NCBI GenBank assembly: GCA_016186495.1
Contig: JACPLO010000001.1
Coordinates: 11,907-75,906 of the forward strand
Source: Candidatus Niyogibacteria bacterium
GTDB lineage: Bacteria; Patescibacteriota; Minisyncoccia; JACROR01
Length of the DNA: 64,000 bases
Direction: 5' to 3'
In this document: positions 22,851 through 56,792 of the stretch, piece by piece
Layout of the letters: every line of letters starts with the position of its first letter
Numbering within the stretch: the stretch's first letter is position 1
Made by a program: the position numbers and the translations under genes
Notes under the pieces: model-generated
Database searches by the model: none
Seen by the model: only the letters and a program-made list of their open reading frames with translations
Told to the model about the DNA's origin: nothing

Positions 22851-23951
22851 ATGAAAGTTCTAAGCATTAGTTCGGATAGAAACATTTTTAACGAAAATTC
22901 TGAAGTCAGGCAGAGAACGATTGAATACGGCCGTTTGGCGGAAGAATTGCATATCATCGTCTTTACAAAACGGAAATTGGAAACAAATCCTAAAATTCAA
23001 ATTTCCGAAAATACTTTTTTTTATCCGACAGATTCATTTAGTCGATGGAGTTATATTTTTAACGCGGTAAAAATCGCCAAAAAAATAATTGGAAATTATC
23101 CTGATAAGTTTCTTGTCACAAGTCAGGATCCTTTTGAAACTGGATTGGCCGGCTGGCTAATCGCACGCCAGTTCAATTTTCCGCTTCAGCTTCAAATTCA
23201 CACTGATTTTCTCTCTTCGTATTTTCGGCGCGAATCTTTTTTGAATAAAATCCGCGTTTGGCTCGCTAAATTTTTGATTTTTCGCGCCGCTTGTCTCCGC
23301 GTCGTTTCCGAAAGGATAAAAAAATCATTGGCGGCCATCGGTTATCCTTTAAATTTCGTAACAGTTTTGCCGATTTTCGTTGATGTTGGAAAAATAAAAA
23401 ACGCGCCGATTAAAACCGATCTCCGGCAAAAATATCCGCAATTTGATTTCATTATTTTGACGGCGTCGCGCCTGACGCGCGAGAAAAATATCGGCTTAGC
23501 CGTTGAAGTGATGGCTGAAATTATAAAAGAATATCCTCAAACCGGCTTGATTATTGTCGGCAACGGACCGGAAGAGCTTGATTTAAAATTTAAAATTAAA
23601 AATTTAAAGTTGGAAGAAAATGTTATTCTTGAAGATTGGACGGAGGATCTCGCGTCATATTATAAAACCGCGGATTTGTTTCTCCTTACTTCCAATTACG
23701 AAGGATACGGCCGGACTCTTATTGAAGCTGTTTTCTCGGGATGCGGCGCGATTTCCGCCAATGTCGGCATTGCCGATGAAATTTTGGCTAAAGAAAATAT
23801 TTTTGAGCCGGACGATAAAAAGGCCCTTGTGGAAAAAATAACAAAAGCAATGAAAGGCGAACTTCTTCAAATTAAGTTTAGGGCAGAAATACGGACAAAG
23901 GACCAGTATTTAGAAAAATATAAAAAATCATGGGAAACATGCAGCTATTAA
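22851..23951 (+). CDS. glycosyltransferase family 1 (GT4-type)
   Basis: 366 aa; C-terminal GT-B motif EGYGRTLIEAVFSGCGAIS. Confidence 0.8.
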   Translation: MKVLSISSDRNIFNENSEVRQRTIEYGRLAEELHIIVFTKRKLETNPKIQISENTFFYPTDSFSRWSYIFNAVKIAKKIIGNYPDKFLVTSQDPFETGLAGWLIARQFNFPLQLQIHTDFLSSYFRRESFLNKIRVWLAKFLIFRAACLRVVSERIKKSLAAIGYPLNFVTVLPIFVDVGKIKNAPIKTDLRQKYPQFDFIILTASRLTREKNIGLAVEVMAEIIKEYPQTGLIIVGNGPEELDLKFKIKNLKLEENVILEDWTEDLASYYKTADLFLLTSNYEGYGRTLIEAVFSGCGAISANVGIADEILAKENIFEPDDKKALVEKITKAMKGELLQIKFRAEIRTKDQYLEKYKKSWETCSY

Positions 23952-25075
23952 TTTTGACTCAAAAAATAGATATAAATGACGATAATCTTGGTTTTTTTGT
24001 GCGTTGGGTTGAAGAATTCGCTAAAAATGTTGAAGAGGTTTTTGTAATCGCGAATTTCACCGGCGAACGCCATTTGCCGGACAAGGTAAAAATTTTTTCT
24101 TTGGGAAAAGAAAAAGGATTCGGAAGAATCAGGCGGTATTTTAATTTTTTCCGTTATCTTTTTGAGATTTTGCCGAAATCGGACGCGGTGTTCGTCCATA
24201 TGATTCCCGTTTGGGTGGTGGCGGGCTGGCCGCTTTATAAAATTTTCAGAAAAAAAGTTTATCCCGTTACATTTTTAAAACCCCGCGGTCTTGCCGCAGG
24301 GGTATCACAACAATATTTTAACATTTTTGCGTGGTTTAATGCTCTGTTGAAATGTAACGGGATTTATTTATGGTACACGCATAAGTCCGTCACTTTTTCT
24401 TTGCGGATGGCGGAAAAAATAGTTGAAAAAATATTTACCGCCTCGCGCGAAAGTTTTCGCTTGCCGTCCAAAAAGGCGGAAATTTTAGGCCATGGCATTG
24501 ATATAGAAAAATTTAAACCGGCGGTTAATTATCAATCATCCGCCAGCTATCAAATTATTACGGCGGGCCGAATCGCGCCGAGCAAGAATTTGGATATTTT
24601 GATTGAGACCGCGGAAATTTTAAAAAAACAGAAGATGAATTTTGAGATGAAAATTGCCGGCGCACCGATCACCGCGGCTGACGACCAATATTTTAAAAAG
24701 CTGAAAGATTTAATTGTAAAAAATAATTTAAAAGATACCATCAGATTCAGCGGCGCGATTCCTTACGGCGAAATTGAAAAATTTTATCAAAAAGGGGATT
24801 TATTCGTGAATTTAAGCGCCACCGGTAGCTTGGATAAGTCTGTTCTTGAAGCGATGGCGTGCGGCGTGAATGTTCTTGTTTCAAACGAGGCCTTTTCTAA
24901 TATCCTGCCGGAGGAAAATTTTATTAAAAATTCAACAGTCGGACAAATTACTGAAAGAATAAAATATTTTATGGATAATCGGGATTCGGCGAATAAAACG
25001 ATTTTGCGCGAAATAATCGTTAAGAATCATAATCTGAAAAATTTAATCAAGAAATTGGTTGAAAATATAAATTGA
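23930..25075 (+). CDS. glycosyltransferase family 1 (GT4-type) carrying an in-frame palindromic element
   Basis: 381 aa; GSLDKSVLEAMACGVNVLVSN; residues ~111-145 encoded by repeat 24261-24363. Confidence 0.8.
   Translation: MGNMQLLILTQKIDINDDNLGFFVRWVEEFAKNVEEVFVIANFTGERHLPDKVKIFSLGKEKGFGRIRRYFNFFRYLFEILPKSDAVFVHMIPVWVVAGWPLYKIFRKKVYPVTFLKPRGLAAGVSQQYFNIFAWFNALLKCNGIYLWYTHKSVTFSLRMAEKIVEKIFTASRESFRLPSKKAEILGHGIDIEKFKPAVNYQSSASYQIITAGRIAPSKNLDILIETAEILKKQKMNFEMKIAGAPITAADDQYFKKLKDLIVKNNLKDTIRFSGAIPYGEIEKFYQKGDLFVNLSATGSLDKSVLEAMACGVNVLVSNEAFSNILPEENFIKNSTVGQITERIKYFMDNRDSANKTILREIIVKNHNLKNLIKKLVENIN
24261..24363. repeat. palindromic element copy inside GT1 CDS (14-bp TIRs ATCCCGTTACATTT / AAATGTAACGGGAT, 75-bp core)
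   Basis: Perfect 14-bp inverted repeats; translated in-frame as YPVT...KCNGI within the protein. Confidence 0.7.
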
Positions 25076-25102
25076 AATAAAATAATTAAAGGTAATAAAA
25101 AT

Positions 25103-25822
25103 ATGAGCCAAGAAGCCAAGAAAATATCAATTGTTATTCCGGCATACAATGAAGAAGAACTTTTGGAAAGAGAGCTGGAAAAAATCATATCCAAAACTAA
25201 TGAAGTGATTGAAAACAGAAACTATGAAATAGTAATAGTAGAAAATGGCAGTACTGATAAAACATTGGAGATAGCGCGCGAATTATCAGCCCGCTATCCG
25301 CAGATTTTTGTTATTTCTTTAACGATCGCGAATTACGGCAGTGCTTTAAAAAATGGAATTTTTAGCAGCCAAGGAGAATTAGTCGCTGTTTTTAATGTTG
25401 ATTTTTGGGACGTTGGCGCGATGAAAAAGGCTTTGGATATTCTTTTAAACGAGAATTGCGATATTGTGGTTTGTTCAAAATCAATGAAAGGAGCGCGAGA
25501 TTTAAGGCCTCTTTTAAGGAGAATTGTCACCCGAGGATTTAATCTGATGCTTTGTTTATTTTTTGGATATCGCGGCACGGACACGCATGGAGTTAAATTT
25601 TTTAAAAAGGAAAAAATATTGCCGATCATTAAACAATGCGTAAATGAGCGGGATTTATTGGATACGGAACTTTTGATCCGCGCGCAAAAAGCGGGGCTTG
25701 TGATAAAAGAAATTCCGATTGTTTGCGAAGAAAAAAGGAAAAGCGTTTACGGCCTTTTTGGAAAAACGCCGAGAATCTTAAAAGATTTGATTCTTCTTTT
25801 CGTTTCTATCCATAAGCGATGA
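25103..25822 (+). CDS. glycosyltransferase family 2
   Basis: 239 aa; ISIVIPAYNEE... GT-A fold, DxD-like region. Confidence 0.8.
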   Translation: MSQEAKKISIVIPAYNEEELLERELEKIISKTNEVIENRNYEIVIVENGSTDKTLEIARELSARYPQIFVISLTIANYGSALKNGIFSSQGELVAVFNVDFWDVGAMKKALDILLNENCDIVVCSKSMKGARDLRPLLRRIVTRGFNLMLCLFFGYRGTDTHGVKFFKKEKILPIIKQCVNERDLLDTELLIRAQKAGLVIKEIPIVCEEKRKSVYGLFGKTPRILKDLILLFVSIHKR

Positions 25823-25823: not shown

Positions 25824-27308
25824 ATGAATAATAAGATAACAATATCGGTTACCGCCTTATTTGATATTTTTGAAAAATATTTTTTGATATTGCTTATCGG
25901 ATTGGTTTTTGGAATGGCTCTTTGGAATTTTCAAACAAGTCCGGGTTTTTGGTTTGACGAAGGAATTATCGCGCAGGCCGCGAAGAATATAGCGGAACAC
26001 GGAATATACGGAATTCAAACCGCGCCGGAACAATTTTATACCGATAATTTTTGGATTACCACGAGTTATTCTCTGATCTGGCCGGTTGCTTTATTCATAA
26101 AAATTTTCGGCGCGTCAATCTGGGCCGCCCGTTTAGCCCCCTTGTTGTATTTGGTTTTTTTCGTTCTCGTTTCTTATTTTTTCATAAAAAAACTTTACGG
26201 TTTCAGAATTGCCGTCCTGTCGTCTTTTTTACTCGCGACTTTTTCTCCTTTGTATGGAAACGGCAAAGCGGTTTTAGGAGAAGTGCCGGGACTTTTTTGG
26301 TTAATATCCGGAGCTTTGATTTATCTGGCGTATCAAGAAAGCAAAGAAAGAAAATTTTTATTTTTTAGCGCGTTTTTTTGGGGGATTGCCGTAAGCACGA
26401 AGCCGTATTATTTGCTTTTTGGCTTAAGCGTTTTGTTTATTCTTGTTTTTTTATGGTTGAAACAGAAAATCATTGATTTAAAAACCGTGATTTTATTTTG
26501 TTTTATTTTTTCTCTACCTGTTTTTTTGTGGATTTTTTTATCGTTTGATTTTTCTTCATTGAACGGATTTCAGAAAACGTTGGTGTTTTTCTCCAATTCC
26601 TACGGTGTTTCGTCATTTGAGCCGCTGAAAAATCTTTTACGGTTCGTGACTGAATCAACGCCGATTCATTTTACATTTTTAATGATTTTTATTTTCGCGG
26701 CGCTATTTGTCCAAAAAGGCGGCTGGCGAAGCGTTAATTCCGCGGTTGGCGGATTTTTAATTTTTATGCTTATTTCATTTTTATGGTATTTAAAAACACC
26801 GGGCTGGTACCGTTATTTTTTTTCCATCCATGTTTTGGCGATTTTATTTTTTCCCGCTTCGCTGATGATTGTCGTCGAACGAACCGGCGCTTATTTTCAA
26901 AAGGAAAGAATGATAAAAATACTGGGAAAAGCGATAATCGGCGCGCTGATAATTTTTCAAGCGGGATTTTTGATCATAAATTATAATCAGTTTTTCCGCG
27001 ACGATTTATTGCGGCTTAAAGATTACGCTGAAAAAAATATTTCCGATGATTCGTCCGTTTTTATAATGAACTTGCCGGAAGCGGCGTTTCTGTTAAATGA
27101 TAAAAATTTATACCAATATATTTTTATCAATGAAAATTTAGCGATAAAATCCGACCGCCCGAAACGTTTAATGGATTATATTATCGTCGGATCGTCCGAT
27201 GATAAATTTATTCTTGGCAATAAAAACTTAATTGATTTTGAATATGTTTTGGAACAAAAAATCGGCCATTATAATATTTACAAAAATATTACTCGTAAAA
27301 TTTCTTAA
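25824..27308 (+). CDS. GT-C fold membrane glycosyltransferase, ArnT/PMT_2-like
   Basis: 494 aa, ~11 TM; first-loop acidic motif FWFDEGIIAQAAKNIAEHGIYG typical of PMT/ArnT family. Confidence 0.55.
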   Translation: MNNKITISVTALFDIFEKYFLILLIGLVFGMALWNFQTSPGFWFDEGIIAQAAKNIAEHGIYGIQTAPEQFYTDNFWITTSYSLIWPVALFIKIFGASIWAARLAPLLYLVFFVLVSYFFIKKLYGFRIAVLSSFLLATFSPLYGNGKAVLGEVPGLFWLISGALIYLAYQESKERKFLFFSAFFWGIAVSTKPYYLLFGLSVLFILVFLWLKQKIIDLKTVILFCFIFSLPVFLWIFLSFDFSSLNGFQKTLVFFSNSYGVSSFEPLKNLLRFVTESTPIHFTFLMIFIFAALFVQKGGWRSVNSAVGGFLIFMLISFLWYLKTPGWYRYFFSIHVLAILFFPASLMIVVERTGAYFQKERMIKILGKAIIGALIIFQAGFLIINYNQFFRDDLLRLKDYAEKNISDDSSVFIMNLPEAAFLLNDKNLYQYIFINENLAIKSDRPKRLMDYIIVGSSDDKFILGNKNLIDFEYVLEQKIGHYNIYKNITRKIS

Positions 27309-27369: not shown

Positions 27370-27449
27370 ACCCCGTTAGAAAGTTATTTTTAAACTATAT
27401 GAATAAGATTTATTTCTGGATGTTTACGAAGCGAGCTTTCTAACGGGGT
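27370..27449. repeat. intergenic palindromic element copy (14-bp TIRs ACCCCGTTAGAAAG / CTTTCTAACGGGGT, 52-bp core)
   Basis: Perfect inverted repeats with the CCCGTTAGAA core. Confidence 0.75.
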
Positions 27450-27491: not shown

Positions 27492-28424
27492 ATGAAAATT
27501 TTAATTACCGGCGGAGCTGGATTTCAAGGAAGCCATCTGACTGAATTTTTATTAAGAATCGGACATCAAATTTCCGTTCTTAACACTTATTCTGAAAAAT
27601 CAGTTTTTAATCTCGCGGCCGTATTGGATAAAATAAATTTGATTTGGGGGAGCATCACCGATAAAGAGCTGGTGGATAAAAGCGTGCGCGGGCATGAAGC
27701 GGTGATCCATATGGCGGCGCGCATCAATGTTGACGAGTCGCTTAAAGATCCTTTAGCGTTTTTTTATTCCAATATTCTTGGCGCTTACAATATTTTAGAA
27801 GCGGTTAAGAATTATGGCTCAAGGCTTATTTTTGTTTCTACCTGCGAAGTATACGGCGATGGCCATGATCTTAAAGACGGAGAACTGCTGGATGAATCAG
27901 CGGAATTAAAGCCTAACAGCCCTTATGCTGCGTCCAAAGCGTCCGCGGACAGGATTTGCTACGCTTATTTCAGGTCTTTTGGTCTGGACGTGACGATTGT
28001 CCGGCCGTTTAATATTTACGGCGAACGCCAGAAGAGCGGATTATTCGGAGCATTAATTCCCATTTTAACCGCGAAGGCCCTGAAAGGAGAAAATTTGACG
28101 GTCTTCGGAGACGGAAGCGCGACTCGCGATTACACTCACGTCAGCGATATTGTGCGGGCATATAATCTGATTTTGGAAAATTCTTCTTTAAAAGGCAAGA
28201 CGATTAATTTTGCCAGCGGCCGGAATGCCAAAATAAAAGAAATAGCGGAGTATATCGCGAAAAAATTCGGAGTCCGGGTTGTCCACGGCCCCTCAAGGCC
28301 CGGTGAAGTAATGAGATTTCCCGCGGATATCTCTTTTGCCAGAAGTTTGGGATATGTTCCCAAAATTAATATCTGGGAAGGAATTGACAGATATTTGGAA
28401 TGGGCCAAATTAAATTTAAAATGA
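27492..28424 (+). CDS. NAD-dependent NDP-sugar epimerase/dehydratase (extended SDR)
   Basis: 310 aa; TGGAGFQGSHL Rossmann motif, catalytic YAASK. Confidence 0.85.
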   Translation: MKILITGGAGFQGSHLTEFLLRIGHQISVLNTYSEKSVFNLAAVLDKINLIWGSITDKELVDKSVRGHEAVIHMAARINVDESLKDPLAFFYSNILGAYNILEAVKNYGSRLIFVSTCEVYGDGHDLKDGELLDESAELKPNSPYAASKASADRICYAYFRSFGLDVTIVRPFNIYGERQKSGLFGALIPILTAKALKGENLTVFGDGSATRDYTHVSDIVRAYNLILENSSLKGKTINFASGRNAKIKEIAEYIAKKFGVRVVHGPSRPGEVMRFPADISFARSLGYVPKINIWEGIDRYLEWAKLNLK

Positions 28425-28484: not shown

Positions 28485-29849
28485 TTGGCCGCAAATGCTG
28501 TTAAAATAAGCGTATCATTTATGATGGATAAAAATAAAATTATAATTATAACGGCAGTCGTGCTCGCGGCTTTTATTTTATCGCTGGCTTATTCTTTTTA
28601 TTTTAAAATTAATCCGGCGGTGGATGCCGCGGCTTACGATAAAATCGCCTGGAATCTGGTTCAGGGAAATGGTTATAAAGAGTCGGCGGATTTGCCGTTT
28701 GATAAGGATATCGCGATTTTGCGGGTCGGTCCGGGTTATGAATTTTTTCTGGCGCTGATTTATTATGTTTTCGGGCATTATCTTTGGGTTGTCTGGATTA
28801 TTCACGCTCTTTTAAGCGCGGCTGCGGCTTATCTGGTGTTTTTGCTTTCCAAAGAAATTTTCAAAGAAAGCCGGAATTTTTTCATCGGCGTGGCGGCGGC
28901 GTCTTTCATGGCATTTTCTCCCGATTTGATTACAATGAGCGGAATGATAATGACCGAGATTCTGGGCGTTTTTTTGATAATTTTAAGCGTTTATTTATTT
29001 TTTAAATATATAAACAGCGAAGCCAAGTCGGTTTATCTTGTTATTTTGGCGGCGTTGGCGTTTGGCGCGGCGGTTTTGGTCCGAACGCCGATCGCCCTGC
29101 TTTTTTTGCCTTTTGCCGGCTATTTTATTTTTCATAAAAATTGGCGGCATTTTTTATTTTTTTCTTTCGCGCTGATTTTAATTTTTCTGCCCTGGACTTT
29201 AAGAAATTATCAAACTTATCATTCATTCATTCCGACTAACTTGGCTTTTGGCTATGATCTTCTGGCCGGAAATCATTCAGGCGCGACCGGCGAACTGGAA
29301 CCGTATTATTTAAACGAACAATTTATGGAGCAGGGAAGAATTGAAGGGAATAAACTTGCCCTTAAAGAAGCCCTGTTTTTTATTTTTGCCAACCCGCTGG
29401 AATTTTTAAAAATTACTTTTTACCGGATTTCCATTTATTTCAGCTTCGCGCGGCCGACCGGATTTTGGTTTCATTTGGAAGGCGCGAGCCGGGCATTGAC
29501 TTTGGCTCTTTCCGCTTTATATTCTGTTTTACTTTTTGTTTTTGGATTTTTTGGGATTTATGGGATAAAAGAATTGCCGCCAACAGACAAAAAAAGAGCA
29601 AAATTTTTTATTTGGACGCTTTTAGCGATGCCTTTGGCCGTCGTTTGGATTATCGTGGAAACGCGCTATCGTTTTCTCGTTTATCCTTTTTTCGCGGTTT
29701 TCGCGGGCTATGGATTGTGGACATTGTTTAATAAAAAAATTGCCCTTAAAATATTGCTTGGCATCTTCGGAATTTTATTTTTGAACACCGCTTTTGACGC
29801 TTGGCGAAATTCGGAAAGAATAATAGAAAGAATCGCGGAGTTATTATGA
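28485..29849 (+). CDS. GT-C fold membrane glycosyltransferase, ArnT/PMT_2-like
   Basis: 454 aa polytopic; loop motif DAAAYDKIAWNLVQGNGY; start may be the downstream MMDKNK. Confidence 0.5.
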   Translation: MAANAVKISVSFMMDKNKIIIITAVVLAAFILSLAYSFYFKINPAVDAAAYDKIAWNLVQGNGYKESADLPFDKDIAILRVGPGYEFFLALIYYVFGHYLWVVWIIHALLSAAAAYLVFLLSKEIFKESRNFFIGVAAASFMAFSPDLITMSGMIMTEILGVFLIILSVYLFFKYINSEAKSVYLVILAALAFGAAVLVRTPIALLFLPFAGYFIFHKNWRHFLFFSFALILIFLPWTLRNYQTYHSFIPTNLAFGYDLLAGNHSGATGELEPYYLNEQFMEQGRIEGNKLALKEALFFIFANPLEFLKITFYRISIYFSFARPTGFWFHLEGASRALTLALSALYSVLLFVFGFFGIYGIKELPPTDKKRAKFFIWTLLAMPLAVVWIIVETRYRFLVYPFFAVFAGYGLWTLFNKKIALKILLGIFGILFLNTAFDAWRNSERIIERIAELL

Positions 29850-30538
29850 AACTTTCAATCATTATTCCCGTTTATAACGAAAAAAACACCGTTCAAGAAC
29901 TTATTAAAAAAGTTCAGAATGTTTTTTTGCCGGATATGGAAAAAGAAATCATTATCGTTGACGATGGTTCAACTGACGGGACGCGCGATATTTTAAAAAA
30001 AGTAAGCGGCATTAAATATATTTTTCACGACAAAAATCTCGGCAAAGGCGGAGCGATAAAGACCGGTTTTCAGCGGGCGACCGGCGATATTATCCTTATT
30101 CAGGACGCGGATTTGGAATATGATCCGAATGAATACGGCCGGCTGATCGCGCCTATTTTTTCCGGTCGCGCCGATGTGGTTTATGGCTCTCGTTTTGTCG
30201 GCAATGATCCTCACCGCGTTCTTTATGTTTGGCATTATCTGGCCAATCGTTTTTTGACGATTTTATCAAATATTCTGACCGGTTTTAACTTATCCGATAT
30301 GGAAACTTGTTATAAAGTATTTAGAAAAGAAGTGGTTGATTCTTTTAAAGAAAAACTAAAATCAAAAAAATTCGGCATTGAGCCGGAATTGACGGCCAGA
30401 ATCGCCAAAGGCCGGTGGCGGATTTACGAAGTCGGCATTTCTTATTACGGCCGAACTTACGAGGAAGGCAAAAAAATAAATTGGAAAGACGGCTTAGCCG
30501 CGATTTGGCACATTATTCGTTTTAATTTATTTAATTAA
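29845..30538 (+). CDS. glycosyltransferase family 2, dolichyl/polyprenyl-phosphate sugar synthase-like
   Basis: MKLSIIIPVYNEKNT...IVDDGSTDGT...QDADLEYDP; ATGA overlap with upstream gene. Confidence 0.8.
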
Positions 30539-50103: not shown

Positions 50104-51171
50104 ATGGTAAAAAAAGCGCTTATTACGGGTATCACTGGCCAGGACGGATCGTATTTGGCGGAATTTTTGCTGGAAAAAGGATACGAAGTTTACGGTATTC
50201 AGAGGCGAGCGAGTATGTCAAATACCCAGCGTATTGATCATATTTTGCATTCCAATCTGTTTATTATGTACGGCGATTTGTCAGACGCTTCTAATTTGAC
50301 GCGCATTTTGCATAAGGTTCAGCCGGATGAAATTTATAATCTTGCCGCTCAGAGCCATGTCAGAGTAAGTTACGATAAGCCGGAGTATACGGTAAATATC
50401 AACGCGTTGGGACCACTCCGTATTTTAGAGACAATTCGCACGCTGGGTTTGCCTGCTAAATATTATCAAGCAAGTTCGTCCGAGATGTTCGGAAAAGTTT
50501 TAGCCACCCCGCAGAATGAAAAGACGCAATTTAATCCCCAGTCGCCATACGGCCTGTCTAAGGTTTTTGCTTTTTATATTACGAAAATTTTTCGCGAGGG
50601 TTACGGCATATTTGCTTCCAACGGCATACTTTTTAATCATGAATCTCCGCGCCGAGGATTTAATTTCGTAACGCGAAAAATTACTTTAGGGCTTTCTAGG
50701 GTAAAGCTTGGTTTACAGCCGATTCTTAAATTGGGCAATATGGATGCGAAGCGCGATTGGGGCCATTCTAAAGATTATGTGGAAGCAATATGGAGGATTT
50801 TGCAGCATGACAAACCGGATGATTTTGTGATCGCGACTGGCGAAAATCACACTGTAAGGGAATTTGTGGAGGAGGTGGCTAAACATTTAGAAATGAATAT
50901 TGAATGGACAGGCAGCGGATTAAAAGAAAAGGGTGTTGATAAGAAAACCGGCAAAATTATTATTGAAATAGACCAAGAGCATTTTAGGCCGAATGAAGTT
51001 GATTTATTGCTGGGTGATTCTGCTAAGGCGCGCCAGATTTTAGGGTGGCAGCCAAAAGTGACTTTCAGCGAGTTGGCGCGGATAATGGCAAAAGAAGATT
51101 TTGATTATGCAAATCGTGAGGCGCGATTAAAAAGTCCGATTGGAAACAAGCATAGATTTCATATTGCATGA
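50104..51171 (+). CDS. gmd: GDP-mannose 4,6-dehydratase
   Basis: 355 aa; [36 protein letters not shown] catalytic, classic Gmd. Confidence 0.9.
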
Positions 51172-51569
51172 TTGCAAATAGTGCCGGATTAGATAAAATT
51201 TTTTATAAAAATATTTTATTTGGAATTTGTTTAAAGAATTTTTCTCAAGGTTCTGTTCCTATAACTGGAGAAATGGAATCTTTACAATTACTTACTTTAA
51301 AATACAAAAAAGGGTATTTGATTAAGCCGCATACGCATGCCTTCAAAAAAAGAATGACTAAAACGCTGCAAGAATGTTTAGTGGTAAAAAAAGGAAAGAT
51401 CAGGGTGGATTTTTATGCGCCGGATAAAAAAATCTTTAAATATATTTATGTTAAAGCGGGCGAAGCCTTGATTATATTGCGGGGAGGCTATGGCGTCCGC
51501 GTTATGCAAAACGCGGAAATATTTGAGTTGAAGAACGGCCCGTTTAAAGAAGATAAAATGCTAATATAA
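51168..51569 (+). CDS. hypothetical small protein (possible cupin, WbuC-like)
   Basis: 133 aa; His-rich beta-strand region HTHAFKKRM; weak. Confidence 0.3.
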
Positions 51570-51574: not shown

Positions 51575-52678
51575 TTATCTTTCGGCATAAAACTCCCGTA
51601 TATATTTAGAAACAGTTAAAATATCTTTATTAGATAAAGTAAATGCTGAAGGCAGCCATATAGATTTTGAGCACAATTTTGTACTGTTGGGAAATTGGCT
51701 ATCCGGCAAACGATAAGGAGGTTGAGTATGGAGCGGCTGCGAGTATGGCCTGCAAAAAACATTTTTTGCTTTAAGAAATTCATTTAAGGCATCTCTGTTT
51801 TCTACGATAGCATCCGTCCACTGGGGTATTTCACCCCGATTGACGCCTGTTTTATACATTGTTACTCTTTTTACATTTTTTAAATTATCCGCATATAATC
51901 TATAGATTTTTTTCATGCGCTGGATCCTTTTATTAAGATAACAGAGTTGTCCGAGTCCCAAGGCCGCCTGAATATCTGTAAATTTAAAGTTGTATCCGAT
52001 AATATTATGCCGGCGATCATCTTGCGCTCCTCCGAATGGCCGGCCTTGATTTTTTAGTTCTTTGATGCGTTGATATAAAGTTTTATTATTAGTTACTATC
52101 ATCCCTCCTTGGCCTGTTGTGATCGTTTTATTTGGTGAAAAAGAAAAGCAACCCGCATCGCCAATGGCGCCTAAATAGCGGCCATTATATTGTGACATAA
52201 AACTTTCTGCCGCATCCTCTACGACATATATATTATATTTTTTTGCAATCGCAAGCATTGATTTCATGTTAGCGGCTCTTCCGGTCATGTGCACGGGAAT
52301 AATCGCTTTGGTTCTCGGAGTGATGGCATGTTGCGCGCTCTTGCTGTTGATATTCGCAGTTTCGGGATCAATATCAACAAGTATTGGTTTAGCGCCTGTC
52401 AGATGAACGGCATTCGCGGTCGCAATGAAAGTAAAGTCCGGGACGATCACTTCGTCTCCATGTCCTATATTTAAACCTTTTAGCACCAAGAAGAGGGCGG
52501 TTGTCCCGCTCGTAGTGGCTACCGCATAAGATACGTTTAATAATTGAGCTACTTTTTGTTCAAATTTATAAGTCAGAGGGCCTTCATTGATAAAATTTGT
52601 ATCAAGCACTTTTTTAATTAATTTACGTTCTTGATTGCCGATTTGAGGCATCCACCAGGGAATTTTTTTGTTTTTCAT
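51575..52678 (-). CDS. DegT/DnrJ/EryC1/StrS-family PLP-dependent sugar aminotransferase (perosamine-synthase-like)
   Basis: 367 aa; PLP-lysine region FSFSPNKTITTGQGGMIV; adjacent to gmd. Confidence 0.8.
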   Translation of the reverse strand: MKNKKIPWWMPQIGNQERKLIKKVLDTNFINEGPLTYKFEQKVAQLLNVSYAVATTSGTTALFLVLKGLNIGHGDEVIVPDFTFIATANAVHLTGAKPILVDIDPETANINSKSAQHAITPRTKAIIPVHMTGRAANMKSMLAIAKKYNIYVVEDAAESFMSQYNGRYLGAIGDAGCFSFSPNKTITTGQGGMIVTNNKTLYQRIKELKNQGRPFGGAQDDRRHNIIGYNFKFTDIQAALGLGQLCYLNKRIQRMKKIYRLYADNLKNVKRVTMYKTGVNRGEIPQWTDAIVENRDALNEFLKAKNVFCRPYSQPLHTQPPYRLPDSQFPNSTKLCSKSIWLPSAFTLSNKDILTVSKYIREFYAER

Positions 52679-52847
52679 ATACGTTTGATTATTTTTGGTT
52701 TCAGTAATGACATTATGAATTTGTCTTTAAATAATTTTTAAGATAGCATTTTCGTTGGTATATGACAAACTTGTTATTGTAATTATTTTAATTGTTGTTT
52801 ATTATAAATTATGTTCTTTTATGATTAATGTTAAGGGAGGGTATATT

Positions 52848-53420
52848 GTGAGCACAAATCATAATAAATTAAATTCACCGCAATACGACAAGTCTTTGTT
52901 GAAATTTGTGGGCGAAGACGTATTTATTAGCGTTAATGTGGAAATTCGCAGACCTCAATTGGTATCCATAGGAAATCATGCAGCGATTGATACGGGATTT
53001 TATCTTACTGCGCAAGCGGATATTGGCAGTTATTTACACATAGGTCCTTATGTAAGCATTATTGGCGGCGCTAAAGGATTTTTCAAGATGGGTAGCTTCA
53101 CTAATATAGCGGTTGGCAGCAGAATTATCTGCGCTTCAGATACCTTTACTGGAGAAGGACTAATCACCGCTCCCGGCATACCGGAGGAGTTAACTAAATT
53201 AAAAATCAAGCCGGTGATTTTTGAAAATTTTGTAAATGTGGGGGCGAATGCGGTTATAATGCCGGGTGTAACGCTAAGAGAAGGTTCAGTTATCGGGGCA
53301 TGTTCATTGGTGATTAAAGATACTGAACCATGGACAATATACGCCGGCATTCCGGCAAAACCAATTAAAAAAAGACCCAAGGAAAAAATGTTGCAATATG
53401 CGAAAAAATTAGGATACTAA
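52848..53420 (+). CDS. hexapeptide-repeat (LbH) sugar N-acetyltransferase
   Basis: ORF open from 52755; preferred start GTG 52848 behind strong SD AAGGGAGGG; repeated [LIV]G-x4 hexapeptides (NVGANAVIMPGVTLREGSVIGACSLV). Confidence 0.65.
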   Translation: MSTNHNKLNSPQYDKSLLKFVGEDVFISVNVEIRRPQLVSIGNHAAIDTGFYLTAQADIGSYLHIGPYVSIIGGAKGFFKMGSFTNIAVGSRIICASDTFTGEGLITAPGIPEELTKLKIKPVIFENFVNVGANAVIMPGVTLREGSVIGACSLVIKDTEPWTIYAGIPAKPIKKRPKEKMLQYAKKLGY

Positions 53421-53528: not shown

Positions 53529-54722
53529 ATGAAAATTGTTTTTATTACCTCTAAATTAAATTTTACTGGAGCGGGAGGTTCGGTTGAGGAGATTGATATT
53601 ATTGCCAGAACTTTAATGAAGCTGGGAAATGAGGTCGTGGTGATCACTGCCTTTTCGCATTTCAATGATATTAACCAAATTCTGCCATATAAGGTCGTTG
53701 AAGAACGGATTTCGTCAGGCCGTATGCTGGGCATTCAGAGGGGCGTTTTTGAGCTTTTAAAAAAATATGAAGATCAGGCGGATTTTTTTCATGTTGACCA
53801 CCTCTTTTTATATGGGGCGGGATTTTATCGGAGGATTGGCGGTAAGATTCCGATCGTTTTGTTGTTTAATCAGTTTATGACCTGTTTGCCCGATATTGCT
53901 CCCACGCTTTTTCCCAGAAAGAAAAGTTTTTTTGTCAGGTTAAAACAAAAAATCCGTTTTTATGTTGAAAAATATATTGGCGTGCCGATAGCTAACGGCA
54001 TTGATATTTTTGCGATAGTCAGCCCGCCGCTCAAAAAAATGTACGAAGATTTTGGCATACGAGGACGGCTTTGCAACATTGTGTTGGGCGATCCGACTGA
54101 TTTTCGGCAAATTATGACAGAGGGCGGGACAGAAAAAGATTCATATATTAAGAGAAATAAGCGCCAAGGCTCTTTTATCATTTTTTATTCCAGCAGAATG
54201 GTTTCGGGTAAAGGATTTGATTTGCTTTTAGACGGATTTTCAAAAGTGAAAAATAAAGATAATTTCAGGTTGATTTTGGGCGGTTCCGGTCCGGAAGAGA
54301 AAATAATTCATAAGATGGCGTTTGATTTAAATCTTGAAAAATACGTCACTTTTCCCGGCTGGGTCTCCAGAAAACAACTTTTTAGCTATTATAAGAATGC
54401 CGATATATTTATTCAGGTTGGATGGAGGCCGGAAGGGACATCAATTTCTTTGCAATATGCTATGGCTTTTGGGATTCCTTCAATATTGCCCGGCGGAGGA
54501 GGGCTTGAATGGGTCGCGAAAGACAGCGCGATTTATGTAAAGAACGGCGATCCTTATGATTTGGCGGAGAAGATAGAAAAGCTCGCCGGTGATTATGATT
54601 TAAGAGCAACACTTTCGCGTAATTGTTATAGGCGCATATCGGATGACGAAATGAATTATGAGATGAATATAAGAAGATTATTTGAAAAAATGAAAGAGCT
54701 CGTGAATTTAAAAACCCCATAA
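53529..54722 (+). CDS. glycosyltransferase family 1 (GT4-type)
   Basis: 397 aa; GT-B C-terminal domain (EGTSISLQYAMAFGIPSI). Confidence 0.8.
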   Translation: MKIVFITSKLNFTGAGGSVEEIDIIARTLMKLGNEVVVITAFSHFNDINQILPYKVVEERISSGRMLGIQRGVFELLKKYEDQADFFHVDHLFLYGAGFYRRIGGKIPIVLLFNQFMTCLPDIAPTLFPRKKSFFVRLKQKIRFYVEKYIGVPIANGIDIFAIVSPPLKKMYEDFGIRGRLCNIVLGDPTDFRQIMTEGGTEKDSYIKRNKRQGSFIIFYSSRMVSGKGFDLLLDGFSKVKNKDNFRLILGGSGPEEKIIHKMAFDLNLEKYVTFPGWVSRKQLFSYYKNADIFIQVGWRPEGTSISLQYAMAFGIPSILPGGGGLEWVAKDSAIYVKNGDPYDLAEKIEKLAGDYDLRATLSRNCYRRISDDEMNYEMNIRRLFEKMKELVNLKTP

Positions 54723-54748
54723 TAAATATTTATTATGGGGTTTTTTTT
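54711..54748. terminator. bidirectional intrinsic terminator between convergent genes
   Basis: Perfect palindrome AAACCCCATAATAAATA/TATTTATTATGGGGTTT flanked by A-run and T-run. Confidence 0.7.
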
Positions 54749-54767
54749 ATATTTTAATTTATTTAGA

Positions 54768-56792
54768 TTAAATTGGTTTAAATTCAGCCCAAAACGGACT
54801 AAACCCTTTAGCATCATAATCGGTGAATATCTTGCTGACGACAAAAAAAAGATCATCGCCGTACAGATTTTTACCGTTTTTAATAATTTCAGCCACTTTT
54901 TGCTTGTTATAAACGACTTCATAACATACAAATCCGGCGTAAGATGTTAATGGTTTTACGCCTTTGTTTTTGTACCAGGCGCTTACATCATAAGCCAGAC
55001 TTAGGTTGTTTTTGGTTGGTTCGTTCCGCACAACGGCGTTTATATCCCGGCCAACCATTGCCCATTTTTTAGCAGAGTCAAGGGAGTTTTTTACTTCCGC
55101 GGTGATTTTATGCGCGCCAACTTTTGCGATAACATCATACGCCAGCTCAAAAGTTTCCGCGCATCTTTCAAGAATAATTTTCGTTTTATGCTTTCTTATA
55201 AGATTGTCCCCCAGTTTTCCGGAAAGCAATTTTTCATAATTTTCCGATTTTGAAAAATACTCATAAAGTTCTTTTTTGGAATCCCAAAGTTCTTCTTTAG
55301 TTTCCCGGATGTATTCATAATAGGCCGCAGACAGTTCAGTATCGCCTGATTTGGCTATTTTCCAAAAACGGATCAAATAGTCATAGGTGTTGATTTCCAA
55401 TTCTTTGAGGTGGCGATGGATGATGTCAAATTGGTCGTGGGATAATAAGGCTGAAATCAGTCCGAAACCGCGGCATTCCAAATATTCCTCAAAAGACAAA
55501 GTATTCGTTTCAATGCAGACTTCTTCGGTTTCAAAGCACTTTTGCCCCGCGTAAGCGCCAAATTGCCTTGGGATGAGGCGGTATTTTGTTTTCATCGCGT
55601 AAGCTTTTCTGGATTCTTGGGAGGCAAGCGGAGTTCCTTTCAGCATCATCGTGGTATAGGGCACGATATGGTCCACTTTTGCGTTTAAAAATGTTTTGAT
55701 TCCTTCAAAAAAAGAAGATTTTGTTTCTTTTGGCATTGGCACAATAAGTTCGGAGCCGAATGGCAGGCCGAGTTCTTGAATGCGGCGTCCGAATGCCAGA
55801 TATTTTTCCAGTGAAATATTTTGTCTTTTAATGATTTCTAATGTTTCCGGATTGGTTGATTGTAAGGATCCTCCGATCGGCATCTTGTTTTGCAGAATGG
55901 AGGATATGCGAAGCACTCTGTTATGGTTGGTTTTGCTGGTTGTGACATCAAAAGCGTTAGGCCAGCCAAACATGTTTTGTAAATCGCGAATATGCTTTGC
56001 TATTTCTTCGTCCCGAGGGAGTATTCCGAAATTGGAATCGTATATCGCTAACAGCGTATTGGAATATGGCTGCATTTTTCGCGCAATATAGTTAAGCTCC
56101 GTTTTTATTCTTTCTATGCTGAATTTTGCGATAGGAGAATACCAAGCCTGCGATGCCTTGCAAAAGGCGCAGGTAAACGGGCATCCTTTGGCGGTCAGCA
56201 AAGAAGGAGCATAATGTCCGTCAAACCATTTATCCATCATGCCGCTTAAATAAGGGGATGGTATTTGATCCAGGTCCATTATGCGCGGAATCGGTCCACC
56301 GACAATTAAATTGCCGGCCGCGCTAATTGACATTATGCCTTTTTGCGCGCGGTTTTTTAAGTCGGGAAGTTTTTCTCTTGCGATGATTTTTCGGATTAAT
56401 TCCGTAAAAGCGATTTCACCCTCTTGATAGGCATAGAAATCAATATTTTTTCTGCTTGAAAGATAATCTTCGCATTCTTTGTTTTCGCGCGGGAATTCCG
56501 GTCCGCCGGCAATGCAAAAGATATTCGGATTAATTTTTTTCGCATAGCCGAAAACTAAATGAGACAGTTCCGCGTTCCAGCAGTAATTGGAGAGCGCGAT
56601 TATATCCGGATGCCATGCCTTTATATCTTTTAAGATGGCGTTAGCATCAACATAAAAATGAAGTTCAATATCATTATGATCAGGCACATTAGCCAGCATA
56701 TATGAAGCGATGTAGCTTATGCCAAGCGGCATAAAACTTGAATGTATGCCGGCGGTTTTGTGTTTAAGGTCGCCCATTGCGATTTTCAGCAT
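54768..56792 (-). CDS. B12-binding domain radical SAM protein
   Basis: 674 aa; N-terminal cobalamin-binding-like domain, CxxxCxxC motif KGCPFTCAFCKAS. Confidence 0.65.
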   Translation of the reverse strand: MLKIAMGDLKHKTAGIHSSFMPLGISYIASYMLANVPDHNDIELHFYVDANAILKDIKAWHPDIIALSNYCWNAELSHLVFGYAKKINPNIFCIAGGPEFPRENKECEDYLSSRKNIDFYAYQEGEIAFTELIRKIIAREKLPDLKNRAQKGIMSISAAGNLIVGGPIPRIMDLDQIPSPYLSGMMDKWFDGHYAPSLLTAKGCPFTCAFCKASQAWYSPIAKFSIERIKTELNYIARKMQPYSNTLLAIYDSNFGILPRDEEIAKHIRDLQNMFGWPNAFDVTTSKTNHNRVLRISSILQNKMPIGGSLQSTNPETLEIIKRQNISLEKYLAFGRRIQELGLPFGSELIVPMPKETKSSFFEGIKTFLNAKVDHIVPYTTMMLKGTPLASQESRKAYAMKTKYRLIPRQFGAYAGQKCFETEEVCIETNTLSFEEYLECRGFGLISALLSHDQFDIIHRHLKELEINTYDYLIRFWKIAKSGDTELSAAYYEYIRETKEELWDSKKELYEYFSKSENYEKLLSGKLGDNLIRKHKTKIILERCAETFELAYDVIAKVGAHKITAEVKNSLDSAKKWAMVGRDINAVVRNEPTKNNLSLAYDVSAWYKNKGVKPLTSYAGFVCYEVVYNKQKVAEIIKNGKNLYGDDLFFVVSKIFTDYDAKGFSPFWAEFKPI

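Follow-up and report, generated by a model that had tools for sequence, protein, structure and literature searches.

A dense glycan-biosynthesis locus in a Candidatus Niyogibacteria genome, probably built on four transmembrane glycosylation modules

The region at 22851-56792 of the window, the 64,000-nt stretch of DNA analysed here, is probably the main cell-envelope glycan locus of this Niyogibacteria genome and appears to be built on four multi-component transmembrane glycosylation modules. Candidatus Niyogibacteria (Parcubacteria, Patescibacteria) is a groundwater bacterium with a tiny genome, in which at least 50 kb is given to surface decoration with unusual sugars. The preliminary description of this DNA was confirmed in what it had observed, while its interpretation was supported in part.

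Extent and content of the locus

The identities of all 31 ORFs of the region were taken from Pfam and NCBIfam profile searches (window ORFs of at least 80 aa; Table 1). The region is 97.6% coding with numerous 4-nt overlaps, and 22 of its 31 genes encode glycosyltransferases, NDP-sugar enzymes or GtrA/LAB_N proteins, so that the clustering exceeds chance by far; the other nine are plausible tailoring enzymes. The super-locus had been described with six GT2 proteins, one of them fused, a GtrA-like and a LAB_N protein, all of which we recovered in place: Glycos_transf_2 in g3, g7, g10, g12, g21 and g19 (here fused to NTP_transferase), GtrA_DPMS_TM in g17 and LAB_N in g15. The proteins that had been counted as three GT1 do match Pfam Glycos_transf_1 (g1, g2, g30), but this family corresponds to CAZy GT4 and not to GT1.

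At the left boundary, G+C falls from ~0.41-0.44 upstream of the tRNA-Met to ~0.35-0.41 within the locus, and a repeat search found no att-like copy of the tRNA-Met end downstream. On the right, the content is as described up to 56792, but glycan genes carry on to at least window-equivalent 72574, as read from L051, which matches the window without a difference over 9,285 nt and extended the inspected DNA by 8.6 kb to 72.6 kb in total. Past the Capsule_synth-like gene, a B12-rSAM, a GT2, an rSAM, a CMP-sugar synthetase (CTP_transf_3), two GFO_IDH_MocA, NeuB and a NeuC-like 2-epimerase follow; a nonulosonic-acid pathway is thus encoded among the genes past the window end. Since the locus measures at least 50 kb, the earlier remark on a large investment was, if anything, an understatement.

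Table 1. Features of the glycan locus and its continuation.
Feature	Position	Strand	Assignment	Basis or remark
tRNA-Met	22756..22828	+	tRNA-Met (CAT)	left boundary
g1	22851..23951	+	GT-B glycosyltransferase, Glycos_transf_1 (CAZy GT4 type)	102 bits; NCBIfam: generic GT4 relatives only
g2	23930..25075	+	GT4-type glycosyltransferase	Glycos_transf_1 80.9 bits
g3	25103..25822	+	soluble DPMS-like GT2, may make polyprenyl-phosphate hexose; forms module 1 with g4	Pfam, NCBIfam, PDB
g4	25824..27308	+	GT-C (PMT_2), 494 aa	PMT_2 43.9 bits, cut-off 26.1
g5	27492..28424	+	SDR NDP-sugar 4,6-dehydratase/epimerase	Pfam, NCBIfam
g6	28485..29849	+	GT-C, PMT_2 and PMT	PMT_2 47.2 bits
g7	29801..30538	+	soluble GT2, AglJ/PpgS/DPMS/ArnC-like candidate polyprenyl-phosphate sugar synthase, module 2 with g6	
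g8	30558..32393	+	glutamine-hydrolysing asparagine-synthase-type amidotransferase	TIGR01536 465 bits, cut-off 267
g9	32390..33034	+	SAM methyltransferase	Pfam
g10	33115..34110	+	ordinary GT2, C-terminal TM segments, EpsD/MftF-like	Pfam, NCBIfam
g11	34101..35174	+	radical SAM/SPASM enzyme	Pfam, NCBIfam
g12	35171..36136	+	full-length ArnC/GtrB-type polyprenyl-phosphate glycosyltransferase, two C-terminal TM helices, module 3	
g13	36120..37481	+	nitroreductase-family domain, C-terminal ~280 aa without family	Pfam, NCBIfam
g14	37466..39097	+	(alpha/alpha)6 toroid and beta-sandwich, epimerase/lyase-like fold	NCBI name 'terpene cyclase/mutase'
g15	39104..39400	+	stand-alone LAB_N small membrane protein	LAB_N 106.8 bits
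g16	39397..41166	+	GT-C (PMT_2), 589 aa	PMT_2 37.2 bits
g17	41173..41832	+	small membrane protein of the GtrA family, may flip polyprenyl-phosphate sugars	GtrA_DPMS_TM 52.8 bits
g18	41848..42882	+	dTDP-glucose 4,6-dehydratase (RmlB)	TIGR01181 408 bits, cut-off 365, equivalog
g19	42893..44341	+	glucose-1-phosphate thymidylyltransferase (RmlA; residues 2-239) fused to Dpm1/ArnC-like GT2 (252-412), module 4	
g20	44374..45093	+	SAM methyltransferase	Pfam
g21	45072..45806	+	Dpm1/ArnC-like GT2	best solved relative ArnC, 1e-18
g22	45821..46408	+	SAM methyltransferase	Pfam
g23	46413..46844	+	FdtA-type dTDP-4-keto-6-deoxyhexose 3,4-ketoisomerase	142 bits
g24	46845..48641	+	GT-C-fold membrane protein (predicted)	MBI2627861.1, 'hypothetical protein'
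g25	48673..49917	-	NDP-hexose C-methyltransferase (Methyltransf_13/14)	Pfam
g26	50104..51171	+	GDP-mannose 4,6-dehydratase (Gmd)	TIGR01472 501 bits, cut-off 415, equivalog
g27	51168..51569	+	133-aa protein without family	4-nt overlap with g26
g28	51575..52678	-	DegT/DnrJ/EryC1 sugar aminotransferase	LegC family 287 bits, below cut-off
g29	52755..53420	+	hexapeptide-repeat acyltransferase	public gene call begins at 52848
g30	53529..54722	+	GT4-type glycosyltransferase	Glycos_transf_1
g31	54768..56792	-	B12-binding radical SAM enzyme, KedN5-family C-methyltransferase-like	Pfam, NCBIfam
	58785..59736	+	IS-type transposase (HTH + rve), two overlapping ORFs	interrupts glycan region
	59794-60768	+	sulfotransferase	locus continuation
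	60719-61699	+	SAM methyltransferase	locus continuation
	61708-62574	-	FkbM methyltransferase	locus continuation
	62620..64000	+	Capsule_synth-like protein, 521 aa	start only in window; runs off its end

Four GT-C proteins and their partners

While four PMT/ArnT-like GT-Cs had been proposed, PMT_2 was found above the gathering score in g4, g6 and g16 only. The g6 protein also matches PMT (PF02366; 35.2 bits, cut-off 22.7) and is named 'glycosyltransferase family 39 protein' by NCBI, and g16 has a sub-threshold TMEM260-like Pfam match. No Pfam match even at E<=1 and no NCBIfam match was obtained for g24, which is a GT-C by predicted fold only; the solved folds nearest to its predicted structure are oligosaccharyltransferases and AftA, and AftA, Pmt4 and ArnT, all using monosaccharide donors, match almost as well as the oligosaccharyltransferases. 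It represents a Patescibacteria-wide family that no database names yet. The term paralogous does not hold for the four proteins, among which no pairwise BLASTP match was seen at E<=1 and profile comparisons were non-significant. Their acidic first-loop motifs are present verbatim in all four translations and conserved among homologues. DE of the g4 motif W[FY]DE[GA] is kept in 5/5 homologues, D47, Y51 and D147 of g6 are invariant over 33 sequences with D52 in at least 90%, the g16 motif is (D/E)E, and the conserved acids of g24 include D51/D62. An in-frame palindromic insert lies inside g16 at 40573-40599.

Polyprenyl-phosphate-sugar donors had been suggested for GT-Cs acting at the outer face, and this is supported by the gene neighbourhood: each GT-C adjoins a GT2 with ArnC, GtrB or DPMS as its best solved relatives, and on this ground we read the locus as four transmembrane glycosylation modules. 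In the first, g3 (NCBIfam dolichyl-phosphate hexose transferase model, 54 bits; best PDB match DPMS 5mlz, 2e-15) is separated from g4 by 1 nt. The second joins g6 and g7 by an ATGA overlap, the true start of g7 probably being the ATG at 29846; g7 scores 114 bits with the NCBIfam AglJ model (cut-off 325), its solved relatives are DPMS (2e-19) and ArnC (9e-18), and the order g6-g7-g8-g9 is kept in the relative L055. For g12 of the third module, the NCBIfam ArnC model gave 180 bits over residues 9-298 and the PgfS model 147 bits, with ArnC 9hwj (7e-48) and GtrB 5ekp (2e-38) as solved relatives. A LAB_N gene, which overlaps g16 by 4 nt here, also directly precedes the g16 homologue in all loci examined (L025, L054, L055), the order GT2 - LAB_N - GT-C - GtrA is kept in all three, and a g17-like GtrA comes after the g16 homologues of L054 and L055. 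In the fourth module, the RmlA-GT2 fusion of g19 recurs in L013 and L015, while L014 and L022 have its two parts as adjacent genes, which ties dTDP-sugar synthesis to the Dpm1-like GT2. The GT2 domain of g19 and g21 (51% identity) are the only clear paralogue pair within the locus, g23 and g24 abut (gap 0), and a Dpm1-like GT2 was found within 8 kb of the g24 homologue in 36 of 47 species genomes. Because all ArnC, AglJ and PgfS NCBIfam scores of the GT2s stay under the equivalog cut-offs, their sugar specificities are not fixed.

Some observations count against the four-module reading. The four modules come with a single GtrA and a single LAB_N, a clear TM anchor is missing from g3, g7, g19 and g21, and the window and the next 8.6 kb yielded neither an initiating phosphoglycosyltransferase nor an LCP-type ligase, a polymerase or any acceptor gene, for the GT4 enzymes included. 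The reading rests on domain identities, the predicted fold of g24, gene adjacency and the conservation of modules among relatives; donor type, flipping, topology and acceptor are inferred from these.

Proposed route and acceptor

We infer a route in which the Dpm1/ArnC/GtrB-type GT2s (g3; g7; g12; g19C with g21) would charge polyprenyl phosphate from nucleotide sugars at the cytoplasmic face, the lipid-linked sugar would be flipped, with g17 and perhaps g15 as the only candidates, and the adjoining GT-C (g4; g6; g16; g24) would hand it on outside the membrane via its first-external-loop acids. As donors, dTDP-glucose may be converted via dTDP-4-keto-6-deoxyglucose to a 3,4-isomerised, aminated, acylated and/or C-methylated 6-deoxyhexose (g19N, g18, g23, g28, g29, g25), g26 and g27 may yield a GDP-6-deoxyhexose, and CMP-nonulosonic acid could be supplied from further downstream. 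The g27 protein, which co-occurs with Gmd among relatives, is possibly a GDP-keto-sugar isomerase/epimerase. For g5, the NCBIfam models for dTDP-Glc dehydratase (218 bits), LegB (193) and GalE (150) all remain below cut-off; a strong hairpin lies 3' of this gene (28452-28480). A cytoplasmic glycan part would be built by g1, g2, g10 and g30 and tailored by methyl-, amido-, sulfo- and radical-SAM enzymes, g8 probably amidating a sugar carboxylate. Near g24 homologues, a g9-like gene (within 8 kb) occurs in 27, a g30-like gene in 23 and a g25-like gene in 20 of 47 loci. As acceptor, a wall-associated glycopolymer or a lipoglycan is the most likely candidate, with surface proteins as a possible addition.

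Alternative readings and known systems

The preliminary description had favoured S-layer, pilin or lipid glycosylation. In the protein version of this, the GT-Cs would be PMT-like O-glycosyltransferases attaching polyprenyl-phosphate-linked sugars to S-layer proteins or pilins, in the manner of Ppm1/Pmt in actinobacteria or PgfS/GT-C in streptococci. The PMT and GT39 assignments of g6, the TMEM260-like match of g16 and the likeness of g12 to PgfS point this way, GtrB-type and GT-C enzymes are documented to glycosylate proteins in streptococci (PMC12041528), and glycosylated S-layers have been speculated upon for Parcubacteria (PMC5220378). However, the window holds no S-layer, pilin or Ser/Thr-rich candidate acceptor, PMT_2 equally covers ArnT and the wall-polymer GT-Cs GacL, GtsC and CsdD (PMC8035078), and the cytoplasmic GT4/GT2 enzymes and heavy sugar tailoring fit an oligo- or polysaccharide better than O-linked single sugars. 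We consider this reading unlikely.

Lacking any evident Wzx/Wzy/Wzz or ABC exporter, the locus had been set apart from classical O-antigen clusters, and indeed neither the window ORFs of at least 80 aa nor the called genes of the next 8.6 kb matched Wzx, Wzy, Wzz, ABC-2 or phosphoglycosyltransferase families. In the distant relatives L035 and L046, the equivalent cluster includes Polysacc_synt, a MOP flippase of the Wzx-like type, together with the GT-C YfhO, so that a flippase or polymerase may sit elsewhere in this genome. Conceivably, a conventional PGT plus Wzx/Wzy or ABC pathway encoded there makes the backbone, and the locus contributes sugars, cytoplasmic glycosyltransferases and GT-C side-branches added after polymerisation. 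Our inspection covered 72.6 kb, a part of the genome, which leaves room for such a pathway. Within this part, none of these genes was met in an otherwise self-contained locus, and four decoration modules without nearby backbone machinery would be unusual; this possibility, too, is unlikely. Rather improbable is a lipoglycan or glycolipid in the style of lipomannan/LAM, in which a (scavenged) membrane lipid would first receive sugars from GT4s in the cytoplasm and several GT-Cs would then lengthen and branch it on the outside, drawing on polyprenyl-phosphate sugars, so that neither Wzy nor an ABC exporter would be needed: the GT4 matches are generic, inositol and lipid-anchor genes are absent from the window, and g24 matches AftA no better than oligosaccharyltransferases or Pmt4. 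The fold of g24 makes a diphosphate-linked oligosaccharide donor possible, but that this protein transfers en bloc to protein or polymer, as in archaeal Agl, an oligosaccharide assembled on polyprenyl (di)phosphate by a Dpm1-like GT2 (AglJ-like initiation) and then GT4/GT2 enzymes, and flipped, is highly improbable given that WWDxG, the defining motif of STT3/AglB/PglB, is absent in 38/38 family members, no PGT or Wzx/PglK-type flippase was found nearby, monosaccharide-using enzymes match almost equally and the match to the AglJ model falls well short of the cut-off.

The four-module reading agrees with the GT2/GT-C glycosylation systems established in Gram-positive bacteria, which include Pfam-less GT-Cs and soluble GT-A partners (PMC8035078; PMC11127046). 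In the Gtr, Gac, Csd and Gts systems, GT-C modules decorate a separately made backbone with side-branches (PMC11127046; PMC8035078), the same working mode as that considered above for a backbone made elsewhere. As a whole, the locus belongs to a known type of system, here at unusual density and with new members.

Extent and content of the glycan locus

The 31 ORFs g1–g31 fill the locus at a coding density of 97.6%; 4-nt overlaps are frequent, and 27 of these genes lie on the plus strand. Pfam agrees almost item by item with the gene content that the preliminary description had called from the sequence, and the four first-loop motif strings quoted there for the membrane glycosyltransferases (GT-Cs) occur verbatim in the translations. 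The three proteins labelled GT1 are indeed Glycos_transf_1 proteins, but their family is of the CAZy GT4 type. Three proteins exceeded their NCBIfam equivalog cut-offs: g8 (the amidotransferase), g18 (RmlB) and g26 (Gmd). A tRNA-Met gene ends 23 nt before the locus start, and the G+C content changes from about 0.41–0.44 upstream to about 0.35–0.41 inside. Although both features would fit an integrase-type genomic island, a direct repeat of the tRNA end was not found, leaving such an island unsupported. Scans for promoters and terminators yielded no excess over shuffled controls, and only three strong hairpins worth noting.

The end of the locus had been placed at position 56792; glycan genes, however, run on past this point and beyond the window. 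A Band-7 gene and an IS-type transposase come first, then a sulfotransferase and two methyltransferases, all within the window. The same sequence was recovered by independent assembly from several sequencing runs. One of the resulting contigs, L051, shares the last 9,285 nt of the window without a single mismatch and is thus its true continuation for another 8.6 kb. Encoded there are a Capsule_synth-like protein of 521 aa, a second B12-radical SAM enzyme, a GT2, a radical SAM protein, a CMP-sugar synthetase, two GFO_IDH_MocA oxidoreductases, NeuB and a NeuC-like 2-epimerase. NeuB, the epimerase, the CMP-sugar synthetase and the two oxidoreductases constitute a nonulosonic-acid pathway. Given the glycan genes past 56792, the glycan region spans at least 49.7 kb, i.e. 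at least about 50 kb. The reported absence of Wzx, Wzy, Wzz and ABC-2 families holds for every ORF of at least 80 aa in the window and for the called genes of the next 8.6 kb, and phosphoglycosyltransferase families, too, had no match there; with the defining genes not found in this range, the region is not a Wzx/Wzy- or ABC-dependent O-antigen or capsule cluster.

Features of the locus, its surroundings and related loci (L numbers, loci of relatives, except L051; coordinates refer to the window unless a locus is named)
Feature	Coordinates	Annotation
Housekeeping genes upstream		LeuRS, GlmS, dCTP deaminase, FtsK, RecA, SSB, S6, YchF
Further housekeeping genes upstream		phosphogluco/mannomutase, class Ib aminoacyl-tRNA synthetase, RNase J, SBP_5 solute-binding protein, TldD/PmbA peptidase
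tRNA-Leu, upstream	18702–18786	
CCCGTTARAW sites	137; 18692–18798; 20555–20632; 27372–27447; 40573–40599	palindromic 10-mer
g1–g31	22851–56792	glycan locus
g1, g2, g30		Glycos_transf_1 (Pfam)
g3, g7, g10, g12, g21		GT2 (Pfam)
g19	42893–44341	GT2 (Pfam), fused to RmlA-type nucleotidyltransferase
g4, g6, g16		PMT_2 (Pfam), above gathering threshold
g15		LAB_N (Pfam)
g17		GtrA (Pfam)
NDP-sugar enzymes		two SDR dehydratases/epimerases, FdtA, C-methyltransferase, Gmd, DegT aminotransferase, hexapeptide acyltransferase (Pfam)
Tailoring enzymes		three SAM methyltransferases, AsnB-type amidotransferase, radical SAM/SPASM, B12-radical SAM, nitroreductase-fusion protein (Pfam)
g13	36120–37481	nitroreductase-family fusion
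g14	37466–39097	NCBI name 'terpene cyclase/mutase family'
g24	46845–48641	GT-C candidate
g27	51168–51569	133 aa
g31	54768–56792	B12-binding radical SAM
Transposase	58785–59736	HTH_28/HTH_32 and rve, rve_3
Sulfotransferase	59794–60768	Sulfotransfer_3
Continuation	L051 1–9955 (= window 62620–72574)	
Second B12-binding radical SAM	L051 6191–8251	
RmlA-GT2 fusions in relatives	L013 4293–5765; L015 5569–7017	
Distant g24-type clusters	L035 12559–19307; L046 12495–20077	
Polytopic proteins without family in relatives	L005 6661–7860; L011 339–2543; L032 1695–3110; L048 2278–4041	

Several single genes deserve mention. The transposase, which lies beside the Band-7 gene inside the glycan region, is split into two overlapping ORFs and could reflect a programmed frameshift or a pseudogene. 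The sulfotransferase, also inside the region, hints at a sulfated glycan; no gene for PAPS synthesis was seen in the window. Sulfated glycans are uncommon in bacteria. Both B12-binding radical SAM enzymes of the region resemble C-methyltransferases of the KedN5 family and match each other with a phmmer score of 162 bits. The name given to g14 was rejected as a function because the fold search points to epimerase- and lyase-like folds: its confident model combines an (alpha/alpha)6 toroid with a beta-sandwich, with dermatan-sulfate epimerase, PL35 chondroitinase and heparinase II/III-like lyases as the best full-length matches and AGE-type 2-epimerases as those of the toroid alone. An epimerase/lyase-like activity on sugars or glycans is probable for this protein. 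Its homologues occur widely among Patescibacteria, with one labelled Heimdallarchaeota. In g13, the nitroreductase-family domain (residues 8–143) is followed by a C-terminal region of about 280 aa without family; the gene is kept with g12, g14, g15 and g16 in a Taylorbacteria locus (L025). The small protein g27 has no Pfam or NCBIfam family, its gene overlaps that of Gmd by 4 nt, and both occur together in 14 of 47 relatives; here we infer a candidate GDP-4-keto-6-deoxymannose isomerase/epimerase.

The 10-mer CCCGTTARAW occurs in 12 copies versus 1.2 expected, and all but two of the copies are arranged as five inverted pairs. One pair flanks tRNA-Leu exactly, two make up a perfect 39-nt tandem located either immediately upstream of the SBP_5 gene or just within it, and another lies between g4 and g5. 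The pair within g16 encodes INPVRNIISNG, an in-frame insert absent from the homologues in L054 and L025. These pairs look like a small REP/MITE-like element.

Four GT-C proteins and the family of g24

The four GT-Cs had been described as paralogous and ArnT/PMT-like. Profile support for the latter exists for three of them, with scores for PMT_2 (CAZy GT39/GT83 type) of 43.9 (g4), 47.2 (g6) and 37.2 bits (g16) versus a gathering threshold of 26.1; g6 also matches PMT (35.2 versus 22.7 bits) and carries the NCBI name 'GT39'. No such support was obtained for g24, which matched no Pfam family even at E ≤ 1, no NCBIfam model and, as a profile of 38 family sequences, no PDB sequence. A paralogous origin is not supported by the comparison of the four proteins, which give no pairwise BLASTP match at E ≤ 1; hhalign of the g24 family profile with g4, g6, g16 and a 33-sequence profile of the g6 family was likewise non-significant. 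An alignment of Y53/E87/D152 of g24 with Y51/E86/D147 of g6 was discarded as evidence, given its probability of 0.5%. Judged by sequence, the four GT-Cs appear to be separate lineages of one superfamily and not duplicates. The sole real paralogue pair of the locus consists of g21 and the GT2 domain of g19 (51% identity). The loop-1 motif is W[FY]DE in all five homologues of g4 and (D/E)E in all four of g16, while in the g6 family all 33 homologues keep D47 and at least 90% keep D52. Searches of PDB sequences by phmmer with g4, g6 and g16 and with the g6 family profile gave no match.

The g24 protein is identical to MBI2627861.1, 'hypothetical protein HYW71_00285', of a Candidatus Niyogibacteria bacterium, whose lineage is Patescibacteria group, Parcubacteria group, Candidatus Niyogiibacteriota. 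The predicted model shows a GT-C fold with a polytopic N-terminal transmembrane module and a helical first external loop. Acidic residues of this loop are conserved among the 38 family members (E/D50 in 37, D51 in 28, D62 and E74 in all), as are a second acidic cluster (D152 in 38, D155 in 37) and R178. Together with the K-rich N-terminus, the model would place the acidic loop outside the cell. By predicted fold and by motif, g24 is a GT-C, in a family described by no library. Its members share 46–67% identity across Niyogi-, Taylor-, Lloyd-, Falkow-, Komeili- and Portnoybacteria and fall into 1,769 clusters (50% identity) at E ≤ 1e-3, 548 of them at E ≤ 1e-30; a GTDB-based collection holds homologues in 47 species genomes. 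As far as names are given, the family is confined to Patescibacteria, bar a few automatically labelled MAGs, and the other sources are unclassified. Distant g24-type clusters (34–36% identity) contain a YfhO GT-C, a Wzx-like Polysacc_synt protein and further polytopic proteins without Pfam family, and polytopic proteins without family are also encoded by four other relatives (Table). Since the g24 family is invisible to current HMM libraries, the number of GT-Cs in CPR genomes is underestimated.

Synthase modules, proposed mechanism and acceptors

Five of the six GT2s in the locus are of the Dpm1/ArnC/GtrB kind, the exception being g10, an ordinary EpsD/MftF-like enzyme. ArnC (E 7e-48) and GtrB (2e-38) are matched by g12 over its full length, both C-terminal transmembrane helices included. 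The best solved relatives of g7 are DPMS (2e-19) and ArnC; its top NCBIfam model is AglJ, and it resembles PpgS with 79 bits. DPMS is matched by g3, and ArnC by g21 (solved structure and NCBIfam) and the GT2 domain of g19 (NCBIfam). With neighbouring GT-Cs, these synthases form four modules. In the first two, g3 and g4 are separated by 1 nt, and g6 and g7 overlap in ATGA; the third runs from g12 to g15 (LAB_N), g16 and g17 (GtrA), and the fourth from g19 and g21 to g23 and g24, which adjoin without a gap. A metagenome scan with g16 gave two loci only. In L054 and L055, an ArnC-like GT2, (a methyltransferase), LAB_N, the g16 homologue and GtrA follow in this order, and in L055 this unit is directly preceded by g6-g7-g8-g9. 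The Taylorbacteria locus has the entire g12–g16 block after its g24 homologue. Of the 47 genomes with g24 homologues, 36 encode a Dpm1-like GT2 no more than 8 kb from the homologue, and the neighbourhood also includes a g9-like methyltransferase (27), a DegT aminotransferase (27), the GT4 g30 (23), Gmd (20) and a C-methyltransferase (20). These conserved orders and neighbourhoods indicate that the modules are units. The RmlA-GT2 fusion of g19 recurs in two relatives among the Parcubacteria (L013, L015), while in L014 and L022 both parts are separate adjacent genes, a Rosetta-stone link between dTDP-sugar synthesis and the Dpm1-like GT2. The fusion predicts a polyprenyl-phosphate sugar synthase that would be fed directly by a dTDP-sugar.

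We consider it probable that a multi-component ('three-component') transmembrane glycosylation scheme, whatever its acceptor, is present here four times. Such schemes are established (PMC11127046, PMC8035078), with precedents for GT-Cs without Pfam domain, for soluble GT-A enzymes dependent on a membrane partner and for several GT-A/GT-C pairs per genome (PMC8035078). The GT2 would load a sugar onto polyprenyl phosphate inside the cell, the lipid-linked sugar would then be flipped across the membrane, and the GT-C would pass it on outside. While gene identity, fold, adjacency and conservation are observed, we infer donor type, flipping, topology and acceptor; the adjoining Dpm1/ArnC-type genes suggest a lipid-phosphate-linked sugar donor for g4, g6, g16 and g24. 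Candidate flippases for the four modules are one GtrA (g17) and one LAB_N (g15), with MATE/Wzx absent from the Pfam matches. Read from the enzymes encoded, the sugars would derive from dTDP-Glc, converted to dTDP-4-keto-6-deoxy-Glc by the RmlA domain of g19 and by g18, followed by 3,4-isomerisation (g23), amination (g28), acylation (g29) and/or C-methylation (g25, g31). A GDP-6-deoxyhexose may come from g26, perhaps with g27. For the dTDP-3-amino-3,6-dideoxyhexose route, RmlB scores 408 against a cut-off of 365, FdtA 142 bits with Pfam, and the RmlA domain, at 221 bits, stays below its cut-off of 320; the DegT aminotransferase and the hexapeptide enzyme are matched at family level.

Several acceptors fit this scheme. 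The modules may decorate a conventionally made polymer, as known systems do; a flippase or backbone pathway could lie elsewhere in the genome, because the equivalent clusters of L035 and L046 carry Wzx-like Polysacc_synt and YfhO. A LAM-like lipoglycan fits the combination of GT4, Dpm1-like and multiple GT-C enzymes as well as the structural match of g24 to AftA. Protein O-glycosylation, the acceptor first proposed, agrees with the PMT match and name of g6 and with the likeness of g12 to PgfS, but PMT_2 is equally the family of ArnT and of wall-polymer GT-Cs (PMC8035078). An oligosaccharyltransferase-like en bloc role of g24 fits its top fold matches (STT3/AglB/PglB), but the defining WWDxG motif is missing from all 38 family members. 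That the g24 family, with AglJ-like GT2, GT4 and dTDP/GDP-deoxysugar genes, performs an archaeal-style en bloc transfer of a polyprenyl-(di)phosphate-linked oligosaccharide to surface proteins or a wall polymer in Parcubacteria is very unlikely; if true, it would be a core envelope-building step in organisms with an uncharted envelope. A weaker reading is more probable, if still tentative, namely that g24 represents a new CAZy-level GT-C family moving a dTDP-derived 6-deoxyhexose from polyprenyl monophosphate.

Significance and comparison with known systems

Patescibacteria account for a large part of bacterial diversity and live attached to other cells; next to nothing is known of what their envelope consists of (PMC5220378). 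With at least 50 kb given over to one locus in such a genome, the cell spends heavily on surface glycans, which by this token are likely to mediate attachment to hosts, resistance to phages or immune-like recognition. CPR genome papers have remarked on numerous glycosyltransferases, on several 'dolichol-phosphate mannosyltransferases' and on an envelope of unknown nature (PMC5220378, PMC4736985, PMC6031116). The kind of system is thus already known, and the novelty is at member level only: a large, unnamed GT-C family (g24), the conserved pairing of LAB_N with a PMT_2 GT-C, the RmlA-GT2 fusion, and four modules with exotic tailoring concentrated in one locus of a reduced genome. Our literature search yielded nothing relevant on LAB_N/PF07578 and, for GT-C or three-component systems of Patescibacteria, annotation-level remarks only. 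The result is sound and useful, though no surprise to a specialist.

The GtrA/GtrB/Gtr* systems of Shigella and Salmonella and CsbB/GtcA/YfhO, GtlA/GtlB, GacI-L, GtsABC and CsdAB.. of Firmicutes (PMC8035078, PMC11127046) share with this locus the GtrB/ArnC-type GT2 adjoining a GT-C, the small GtrA-family membrane protein, the acidic motif of the first loop, GT-Cs with PMT_2 or without Pfam domain and soluble GT-A partners. Unlike these systems, the locus brings four modules together, includes a stand-alone LAB_N as a further conserved partner and has RmlA joined to one synthase, implying a dTDP-sugar donor; backbone pathway and acceptor genes were not found in the 72.6 kb inspected, and the organism is a Patescibacterium. 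Actinobacterial extracytoplasmic assembly (Ppm1/Pmt; PimE, MptA/B, AftA-D, EmbA-C; PpgS/Rv3779) likewise employs several mutually dissimilar GT-Cs, which here too would use polyprenyl-phosphate sugars, with cytoplasmic GT4 steps and no Wzy; g24 has AftA among its top structural matches, and g7 resembles PpgS. In contrast, genes for decaprenyl-phospho-arabinose are absent, no sequence-level link to GT85, GT87, GT53 or similar families emerged, and the sugars would be 6-deoxy-amino or methyl hexoses and nonulosonic acid.

The Arn pathway of lipid A modification (ArnC/ArnT/ArnE/F) is echoed by the full-length ArnC alignment of g12, by PMT_2 as the family of ArnT and by LAB_N, named after lipid A biosynthesis proteins. 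However, ArnA, ArnB and ArnD are absent, as are formyltransferase and deformylase from the Pfam matches of the locus, and g12 reaches 180 bits with the ArnC model against an equivalog cut-off of 529. Lipid A synthesis is reported to be missing in Parcubacteria (PMC5220378). STT3/AglB/PglB and the archaeal Agl enzymes provide the best fold matches of g24 and the counterpart of the AglJ-like GT2, but g24 lacks WWDxG and any detectable sequence similarity to them, and no PGT or flippase lies nearby. The dTDP-3-acetamido-3,6-dideoxyhexose (Fuc3NAc/Qui3NAc) route employs RmlA, RmlB, FdtA, FdtB and FdtC, and C-methyl deoxysugars are made by TylC3-type C-methyltransferases. The RmlA domain, RmlB (at equivalog level), FdtA, DegT aminotransferase, hexapeptide acyltransferase and C-methyltransferase of the locus would correspond to these pathways, with the difference that RmlA is fused here to a Dpm1-like GT2.
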